Origin: Escherichia coli
GTDB lineage: Bacteria > Pseudomonadota > Gammaproteobacteria > Enterobacterales > Enterobacteriaceae
Assembly: GCF_045037415.1 (NCBI RefSeq)
Contig: NZ_CP173438.1
DNA: 64,000 nucleotides
Reading direction: 5' to 3' (one strand)
Of this stretch, positions 45,641 through 46,034 are shown in pieces. Position 1 is the stretch's first letter; every line of letters starts with the position of its first letter. A program made the position numbers and the translations under genes. The notes below the pieces were generated by a model. That model worked only from the letters and a program-made list of their open reading frames with translations, searched no databases and was not told the origin of the DNA.

Positions 45641-46034
45641 GTTCGTGGCGGCACCATTATATTCTGAATATGTAAGATCGAAGGCTGTTCCGTTCACTTG
45701 ATGTTCCTCGCTACTATGGAACGCTCAAGCCGGTGAACGTGCCAGGGTGGCTCAATCGCCACCACCCTGGCAACCCGGGCTCCCGGCGGTAAATCGCCGC
45801 TGGCGCGGTTCCCTCATCTTATTCCTTTCGGCTATCGGGTACGGGCGCGAGGTAACATCCCTGTAAAACGCGCCCTCAGCCCACATCCATGTGGGCTGCC
45901 CCGGCCTACAGGAAACGATTCGGCGATTTACAGCCGGACCCACACCCCCGCTGTGATGTCCATGTACCACAGACAACGCTTCATTGCTGAAGTTATAAGG
46001 CGTTACGCAGCATTGGGTAAAATGGCCGATGCCA

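Follow-up and report, generated by a model that had tools for sequence, protein, structure and literature searches.

We analysed the 451-bp spacer between the convergent genes asmA (on the + strand; its stop codon ends at 45583) and yegH (on the - strand; end at 46035) in a 64,000-nucleotide stretch of Escherichia coli DNA (contig NZ_CP173438.1, assembly GCF_045037415.1; the whole stretch is called the window). Judged by its alignments, the spacer, apart from a repetitive extragenic palindromic (REP) unit, is one diverged, strain-variable copy of the TRIP1 repeat, two types of which have also been described as replication risk sequences (RRS), and it belongs to the subfamily dominant in Enterobacter. 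It is thus a member of a known family and not a new RNA gene; the asmA-yegH locus itself was not found described in the papers searched. The most likely reading, to which as a whole we give a probability of about 0.85, is a relic: a diverged TRIP1/RRS copy that is probably old, immobile and decaying, and that we infer to have no dedicated function at asmA-yegH.

Membership in the TRIP1/RRS family

Megablast and blastn searches with the spacer against 5426 complete E. coli genomes gave a median of 3 matching places per genome and a maximum of 10. By blastn, other copies of the core were found in the intergenic regions aqpZ-lysO, putP-efeU, dusC-yohP and proX-ygaY, the first three of which are the published TRIP1a, TRIP1b and TRIP1c loci (compared with PMC10888264). 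An earlier sequence-only reading of the window had asked for a blastn comparison that would tell a repeated segment from a strain-specific one: the core is repeated at other intergenic loci, and the asmA-yegH locus varies between strains. TRIP1 repeats were first reported by Rudd in 1999 from intergenic regions of E. coli K-12. They were re-described by Li et al. in 2024 as five types at five fixed loci (aqpZ-ybjE, putP-ycdN, yohI-yohG, alx-sstT and copA-ybaP), with 62-65% GC, a predicted "double-Y" fold, a function that was not known and an involvement in chromosomal inversions; many copies sit just 3' of a stop codon (PMC10888264). TRIP1a and TRIP1c are the RRS-lysO and RRS-dusC elements of Pham, Cox, Goodman and colleagues, 222-bp repeats that each lie 650 kb from dif (PMC10287960, PMC11194060). 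The asmA-yegH spacer is not in this list of five; Li et al. (PMC10888264) do not use the word asmA, and the 2024 RRS paper (PMC11194060) mentions neither asmA nor yegH.

The core of the window copy was 83-86% identical to Enterobacter copies over 45688-45940 and 79% identical to the E. coli proX copy over 253 bp. Identity to K-12 TRIP1a/TRIP1c was 85-86% over only 189 bp (homologous to 45745-45929). In the multiple alignment the copy matched TRIP1a/TRIP1c column by column, with common blocks throughout 45745-45940, and a spurious alignment is therefore very unlikely. Like the published TRIP1 repeats, to which it is homologous, the copy is intergenic, lies just 3' of a gene, is GC-rich, has the same multi-hairpin ("double-Y") fold and varies in presence between strains. 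It differs in that its identity to TRIP1a (~86%) extends over only ~189 of 266 bp, which is under the 80% coverage filter of Li et al. and probably explains why it was not listed. It also differs in its left part (hairpins A and B), which is that of the other subfamily, common to the E. coli proX-ygaY copy and Enterobacter; the sequence of these two hairpins differs between the two subfamilies, with the pairing kept. A copy between proX and an MFS transporter gene in E. coli STN0717-11 (2361-2812 of the locus extracted) also lies outside the five published TRIP1 loci; it shares the subfamily of the window copy, and part of the BoxC-like left segment (GGGGAGAGGGTATTTGAAGGTGAAATATG) is retained in it.

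Conservation of the fold by covariation

To a fold predicted for the window + strand we applied pair counts over 72 copies that were less than 96% identical to each other, using as controls the same pairs with partners slid by 1-3 columns, and 500 shuffles. Standard pairs were formed in 85.8% of the cells (33-43% in the slid controls), and 36 of the 74 pairs changed on both sides (14-25 when slid). The number of cells changed on both sides was 376 as against 58-100, the covariation score was 0.21 as against ~0.045, and none of the 500 shuffles reached the observed values. Analysis of compensatory changes across homologues had been proposed in the sequence-only reading; over these copies, the fold is indeed kept by covariation.

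The segment 45677-45955 was also folded on its own. As single-stranded DNA (ssDNA) it gave -69.6 kcal/mol for the + strand (z -6.26) and -76.4 for the - strand (z -6.42), and as RNA z -4.15 (+) and -5.99 (-). None of 200 dinucleotide shuffles folded as well for any strand or type of nucleic acid: folding is beyond chance on both strands. A long-range stem had been overlooked earlier, in which CCGGC.GTAAATCGCCG (45783-45799) pairs with CGGCGATTTAC.GCCGG (45921-45937) and encloses the last two hairpins.

Covariation was spread over the whole structure. The outer stem of hairpin A was paired in 96% over the 72 copies; changes on both sides were seen in 3 of its 7 pairs and, across the family, in 6 of the 11 pairs of hairpin B. 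P0 was 97% paired with all 5 pairs changing on both sides, and P1 was 93% paired. The tip stem of P4 covaried (TAACA/TGTAA, CCTACA/TGTAGG, CCTGCA/TGCAGG) around a constant loop, and 5 of the 9 pairs of P5 changed on both sides across the family around an invariant one. Both terminal loops (CATCCNTG on the + strand, CANGGATG on the - strand) were invariant over the 72 copies, from about ten genera, while their stems covaried. Probably a protein recognises these loops, or a tertiary contact requires them. As far as the alignments go, the part conserved in all subfamilies is the hairpin domain and not the G-quadruplex (G4). The interiors of MITEs (miniature inverted-repeat transposable elements) are not normally so constrained, which suggests that the core is a functional module somewhere in the family, either through RRS-type replication effects on the host or for the element.

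Comparison with the published RRS

In RRS the template of the lagging strand is the G4 strand, 5'-GGGGGTGCAGGGGGCGGCGG-3'. Polymerases are blocked by the element, RecA and SSB are loaded onto the post-replication gap that it leaves, which can reach 2 kb, and at least one copy is conditionally essential (PMC10287960, PMC11194060). RRS was active wherever it was inserted in the G4-lagging orientation, and the inverted RRS gave no RecA/SSB peak in vivo (PMC11194060). With the C-rich strand as lagging-strand template, synthesis was blocked in ~66% of encounters in vitro (2026 preprint, bioRxiv 10.64898/2026.06.16.732529).

The K-12 lysO and dusC loci carry the published G4 sequence on the strand complementary to the window + orientation. 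No match to this motif within 3 mismatches was found in the whole window, and at the aligned site the G-runs are degraded (Table 1). The G4Hunter minimum was -1.24 for the whole window element versus -1.84 in RRS. For the window + strand, which is the C-rich strand of the element, the GC skew is +0.024, and its K-12 counterpart is the bottom strand of the left replichore; therefore the homologue of the G4 strand is the leading-strand template, and the window copy has the orientation for which no gap peak was seen with RRS in vivo. In K-12 coordinates asmA-yegH lies at ~2,139.5 kb and RRS-dusC at 2,229 kb, which places asmA-yegH ~90 kb nearer the terminus; in strain SK1144 the two copies are 91 kb apart and in direct orientation. 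The asmA-yegH copy does not have the RRS position, which is ~650 kb from dif in an inverted pair across the terminus.

The window copy thus resembles RRS in its repeat family, in stable intrastrand structure on both strands and in sharing the replichore of RRS-dusC. It differs from RRS in having no GGGGGTGCAGGGGGCGGCGG, in having its G4-strand homologue as leading-strand template, in its distance from dif and in its lack of conservation in E. coli. Judged from sequence, it appears to be without the features that define a published RRS, namely G4, orientation and position. Across the family, copies were oriented 47 to 40 with respect to local GC skew, which is a noisy proxy; this absence of bias fits random insertion better than a selected, replication-oriented function.

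SK1144, whose spacer is 100% identical to that of the window, has its dusC-yohP RRS copy (27316-27702 of the extracted locus) inverted in place with respect to K-12 (1067-1438 of the locus extracted there). This copy carries the G-run variant GGGGGTGCAGGGGGAGGAGG, and its C-rich strand is on the positive-GC-skew (lagging-template) strand. In SK1144-like genomes blastn showed only two family copies, with apparently none at aqpZ-lysO.

Loss of the copy in E. coli lineages

At least 80% of the spacer was covered by one place in 1424 of the 5426 complete E. coli genomes. A survey of spacer lengths, made with the ends of asmA and yegH as queries, distinguished the alleles listed in Table 1. The two different internal deletions, of K-12 type and O145 type, share an intact left border, which indicates that the full form is ancestral to both and that it was lost repeatedly. 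This repeated loss is our main argument that the element has no dedicated function at the locus.

The K-12 asmA-yegH spacer (1487-1759 and 1501-1773 of two extracted loci) keeps the left 195 bp of the polymorphic segment (homologous to 45641-45835, with hairpins A and B). By homology, the reference genome has here a fourth, unannotated remnant of the TRIP1 family.

Relatives outside E. coli and a MITE-like unit in Enterobacter

One genome per species was scanned with a pattern of 19 specified bases spanning hairpin P5. At least 120 loci were found, almost all in Enterobacteriaceae (Enterobacter, Kluyvera, Silvania, Pluralibacter, Pseudescherichia, Citrobacter, Lelliottia and Pseudocitrobacter, together with Escherichia albertii), with a few chance matches and a few metagenome-assembled genomes (MAGs) of other phyla. 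In MAG contigs labelled Bacillota, Desulfacinum and Sporobacter, the element was 76-83% identical to the window core; such contigs look like contamination, most likely Enterobacteriaceae sequence that was binned wrongly.

Enterobacter hormaechei subsp. hoffmannii DSM 14563 carried at least 15 copies that were 97-99% identical over ~460 bp. Alignment of these copies together with their flanks defined a 429-bp unit that holds the TRIP1/RRS-like core. Compared over 13 positions with the inside end of IS10, CTGAGAGATCCCC, the ends of this unit agreed at 11 (CTGAGGGTTCCCCA) and 12 (TGGGGATCCCTCAG) of them; a check of the IS10 end in plasmid R100 gave 37/37. The right end contains GATC, which is present at one end only, like in the IS10 inside end. 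IS10 produces 9-bp duplications. The 9-bp flanks of the unit were exact in 12 of the 31 two-ended copies, most of the others differing by a 1-nt shift or one mismatch, and the flanking 9-mer was specific to the locus (CCCACAGGG, CCCTGTGGG, CCCACGGGG, CCCCGTGGG, CCTGCCGGG). The target was the centre of a BoxC-like palindrome, CCCTCTCCC-NNNN-GGGAGAGGG, and intact palindromes were also present in the same loci.

The simplest reading is that the 429-bp Enterobacter unit is a MITE moved by an IS10-like (IS4-family) transposase. The Enterobacter and Silvania relatives resemble such elements in size (423-429 bp), in inverted ends of the form CTGAGGG(T/A)TCCCCA that match IS10 ends with GATC at one of them, in 9-bp flanking duplications, in high copy number with near-identical copies, and in having no open reading frame (ORF). 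They differ in that their target is a BoxC-like palindrome and not the IS10 consensus target, and in the structural selection that acts on the interior of the unit, something not usual in MITEs. No description of a named IS10-derived MITE in Enterobacter was found in the literature searched. A plasmid search for the unit returned only three matches, all to very large E. coli records of 4.8-4.9 Mb that are probably mislabelled chromosomes, and the element appears to be chromosomal. Among the extracted loci, an orthologous empty site was sought for an E. hormaechei insertion; the single candidate lacked both the BoxC-like repeat and the unit, so that the duplication was not settled by it. In the Silvania hatchlandensis copy (~31-325 of the extracted locus) the region of hairpin P5 is internally duplicated in tandem and P1 is deleted, a further form of decay.

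The window copy differs from these relatives in having neither recognisable ends nor a duplication: no CTGAGGGTTCCCCA or TGGGGATCCCTCAG was found within 3 mismatches in 45501-46100, though they are present in 31 relatives, and no target-site duplication was found at the borders 45641 and 46028. It is short, non-coding, multi-copy and polymorphic for presence and absence, as a MITE would be. The sequence-only reading had offered a small RNA (sRNA), a composite repeat or MITE-like element, or a protein-binding or processing site as explanations for the hairpins; the repeat or MITE-like option is the one that held, and the sRNA option was not borne out (see below).

Search for an RNA gene

An Rfam scan at permissive E-values, the covariance-model check proposed earlier, gave no family at its gathering score, and also returned chance snoRNA and miRNA matches. 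On the - strand, TwoAYGGAY (RF01731) gave a sub-threshold match to 45790-45933 (31.5 bits, E 0.015) whose alignment took in both loops as well as the closing stem. Two TRIP1a-like relatives, one of them the aqpZ copy of strain Nissle, scored 30.6 and 29.9 bits, and Enterobacter-type copies gave no match. Membership was rejected, as 31.5 bits is below the gathering score of 43. The likeness to TwoAYGGAY lies in two adjacent - strand hairpins with loops AUGGAU and AGGGAU, closed by the long P1 stem. The differences are that AUGGAU fits AYGGAY and AGGGAU (R, not Y) does not, and that most subfamilies have no match. The consensus for CsrA from systematic evolution of ligands by exponential enrichment (SELEX) is RUACARGGAUGU, which we take the terminal loops to resemble; on the - strand they look like high-affinity CsrA sites ~28 nt apart. 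TwoAYGGAY itself has been proposed to be a CsrA-binding RNA (PMC4333381).

Scans for promoters and intrinsic terminators found no site in the spacer, with counts equal to those in shuffles. Strand inference from G-U versus A-C mismatches was mixed, and alifold gave -50 for the - strand versus -39 for the + strand. The orientation of family copies relative to flanking genes was inconsistent, the + strand being sense to asmA, aqpZ and putP and the - strand to proX and alx. The literature searched gave no sign of a transcript, nor of binding by CsrA at lysO or yohP. An independent sRNA gene is not supported: there is no promoter or terminator of its own in the spacer, and most E. coli genomes lack the element or have only a truncated form.

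Weighing of the explanations

The relic reading brings these observations together as follows. The family is a ~250-bp module that, when single-stranded, folds into two 5' hairpins and a closed two-hairpin domain, a fold that the covariation indicates is kept across genera by compensatory changes. In Enterobacter the module would have been dispersed inside the 429-bp unit, which its IS10-like ends and 9-bp target duplications suggest to be a non-autonomous transposable unit. In canonical copies, according to the literature, the folded strand blocks lagging-strand synthesis, most strongly for the G-quadruplex strand, with a gap of up to 2 kb carrying RecA or SSB. The window copy has lost the G4 motif and has no recognisable transposon ends, presents its G-rich strand on the leading-strand template and has been deleted independently, wholly or partly, in most E. 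coli lineages. Its effects may at most be incidental: the C-rich strand as a weak obstacle to replication, a 3'-end structure in the convergent asmA/yegH transcripts, or a substrate for recombination with other copies.

Several points weigh against this reading. Covariation as strong as that observed means that the fold is under selection somewhere in the family; the absence of function is inferred for the window copy only, from its patchy distribution. The descent of the window copy from a MITE insertion would follow from its relatives, as no ends were detected in the copy itself, and the E. coli copies could instead be an ancestral module that was later captured by a MITE in Enterobacter. 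An alternative reading of the 429-bp unit is that it is merely bounded by two BoxC-like palindromes, because the 9-bp duplications lie inside the palindromic BoxC-like target and only 12 of 31 are exact. Finally, the orientation in which the C-rich RRS strand still blocks ~66% of encounters in vitro (2026 preprint) is that of the window copy, and some replication effect is possible.

An active, G4-independent RRS would extend this last point: the C-rich (window +) strand, as lagging-strand template, would fold, stall Okazaki synthesis and leave transient gaps ~91 kb on the terminus side of RRS-dusC. The + strand does fold strongly as ssDNA (-69.6 kcal/mol, z -6.3), the positive GC skew makes it the lagging-strand template, and the ~66% block by the RRS C strand (bioRxiv 10.64898/2026.06.16.732529) and the ability of RRS elements to function at any site of placement (PMC11194060) are consistent with such activity. 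Covariation of the fold is kept in subfamilies without G4, and SK1144-like genomes show only two family copies, of which the one at dusC is also in the orientation of the window copy. However, RRS inverted to this orientation gave no RecA/SSB peak in vivo (PMC11194060), about three quarters of E. coli genomes lack the copy or have a truncated one, the family shows no orientation bias against local GC skew (47 to 40), and asmA-yegH is not at the canonical 650 kb from dif. We consider this explanation unlikely.

Explanations at the level of transcripts fare less well. REP elements stabilise upstream mRNA, and the adjoining REP unit would suit a retained 3' structure of the convergent asmA and yegH transcripts, acting as an exonuclease barrier or as a bidirectional insulator against read-through and antisense collision. 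The segment indeed lies between two convergent stop codons, its RNA folds are very stable on both strands, and many TRIP1 copies are found just 3' of a stop codon. Yet it has no U-tract terminator, the genes manage without the element in natural alleles (Nissle, 67-bp spacer), and such a role explains neither the loops conserved throughout the family nor its dispersal; we regard it as distinctly improbable. Still more doubtful, to the point of being very improbable, is a structured RNA from the - strand (the yegH 3' untranslated region side), related to TwoAYGGAY, whose loops CAUGGAUG and CAGGGAUG would bind a CsrA dimer. Invariant loops on covarying stems, and their presumed resemblance to the SELEX consensus, would fit such an RNA, as would the better RNA fold of the - strand (z -6.0 versus -4.2; alifold -50 versus -39). 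The sub-threshold TwoAYGGAY match (- strand 45790-45933, 31.5 bits, similar in two relatives) points the same way, given the proposal that TwoAYGGAY binds CsrA (PMC4333381). Against it stand a score under the gathering value of 43 with no match in Enterobacter-type copies, the empty promoter and terminator scan, the inconsistent orientation of copies relative to flanking genes, the mixed G-U versus A-C asymmetry, and a literature search that gave no transcript or CsrA-binding evidence.

Features of the spacer

The G+C content of the spacer was 0.57-0.62, compared with 0.49-0.52 in the flanks. The gene ends bear out the assignment of convergent asmA and yegH in the sequence-only reading, and all five inverted repeats that it had named are present at the coordinates it gave. 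It had also seen no coding ORF here, and we agree: a 102-aa ORF at 45752-46060 (- strand) matched no NCBIfam family and is destroyed by the deletion alleles. A tRNA/tmRNA scan found none.

The REP unit lies outside the TRIP1-like element. It is kept in the Nissle-type allele, which is without that element, and on its own it matches many other places across E. coli genomes. A sub-threshold Rfam match to naRNA4, a REP-derived nucleoid-associated RNA (Rfam), at 45607-45679 (- strand; 33.1 bits versus a gathering score of 59.5) is due to the REP unit only. The 388-bp segment downstream resembles REP elements and bacterial interspersed mosaic elements (BIMEs) in being intergenic, palindromic and multi-copy, with a true REP directly upstream. 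REP/BIME identity was rejected for it: it has no REP units or similarity to them, is ~10x longer and has far fewer copies. In the sequence-only reading, multiple copies with REP/BIME organisation would have made the segment an ordinary repeat; the copies exist, and the REP organisation is confined to 45608-45640.

Table 1. Features of the asmA-yegH spacer in window coordinates, and length alleles of the spacer among E. coli genomes
Feature	Position	Strand	Description
REP palindromic unit	45608-45640		inverted repeat, arms 45608-45621 and 45627-45640; outside the TRIP1-like element
Full polymorphic segment	45641-46028		388 bp, from the five-allele alignment; maximal extent of the TRIP1/RRS-like insertion
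Conserved core	45688-45940	+	homologous to positions 98-349 of the 429-bp Enterobacter hormaechei unit (84%)
Hairpin A	45691-45739		outer stem cgttcac/gtgaacg, 45691-45697 with 45733-45739; inner stem gttcc/ggaac, 45703-45707 with 45718-45722
Hairpin B	45740-45772		perfect 11-bp stem, 45740-45750 with 45762-45772; longer than the ccagggtgg/ccaccctgg first described
G4-homologous site	45759-45776	-	reads GGGTTGCCAGGGTGGTGG, G-runs degraded; from the alignment
Closed domain	45783-45937		P0, 45783-45787 with 45933-45937; P1, 45789-45799 with 45921-45931; encloses a junction and two terminal hairpins; from the folds
Hairpin P4	45843-45875		stem gggcgcg/cgcgccc, 45843-45849 with 45869-45875; tip stem 45855-45857 with 45862-45864; loop TCCC
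Hairpin P4, conserved motif		+ / -	CATCCCTG (+); CAGGGATG (-)
Hairpin P5	45877-45898		perfect 10-bp pair cagcccacat/atgtgggctg, 45877-45886 with 45889-45898
Hairpin P5, loop motif		+ / -	CATCCATG (+); CAUGGAUG (-)
Terminal loops	45855-45864 and 45885-45890		alignment columns 214-223 and 266-271
Allele 451 bp			this window
Allele 273 bp	45836-46013 missing		K-12 type; 178 bp missing, junction between two short GGGTA repeats
Allele 292 bp	45781-45939 missing		O145 type; 159 bp missing, whole P0/P1 domain gone
Allele 67 bp	45641-46028 replaced		Nissle type; REP only, 4 bp CTAC in place of the segment
Allele 722-745 bp			O157 type (E. coli O157:H7, 403-1021 of the extracted locus); RelE/ParE-family toxin gene and helix-turn-helix antitoxin gene in place of the repeat

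Implications for the RRS/TRIP1 family

For the idea of a new RNA gene the outcome is deflationary: the spacer holds a copy of a known repeat. It does show that family copies exist in E. coli beyond the five published loci, at asmA-yegH and proX-ygaY, without G4 and with the fold kept, and these two copies offer natural variants with which the part played by the G4 could be told apart from that played by the hairpins. The 429-bp Enterobacter unit with its IS10-like ends suggests a mobile-element origin for a sequence that is now discussed as an element of chromosome architecture. Of interest for work on RRS are the IS10-type MITE behaviour in Enterobacter, the invariant loops and the inverted dusC copy in SK1144-like genomes.

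RRS/TRIP1 elements are currently described as positionally conserved, conditionally essential devices of genome topology that are defined by a G-quadruplex. A more speculative view, which we put forward tentatively and hold to be somewhat less probable than an even chance, is that the E. coli elements are domesticated, or simply leftover, cores of an IS10-type MITE family whose proliferation continues in Enterobacter, and that the covarying double hairpin with its invariant CATCCNTG loops, and not the G4, would be the ancestral functional module. If this were true, G4-less copies such as that at asmA-yegH would offer a natural test of which part of the element is responsible for replication gaps.

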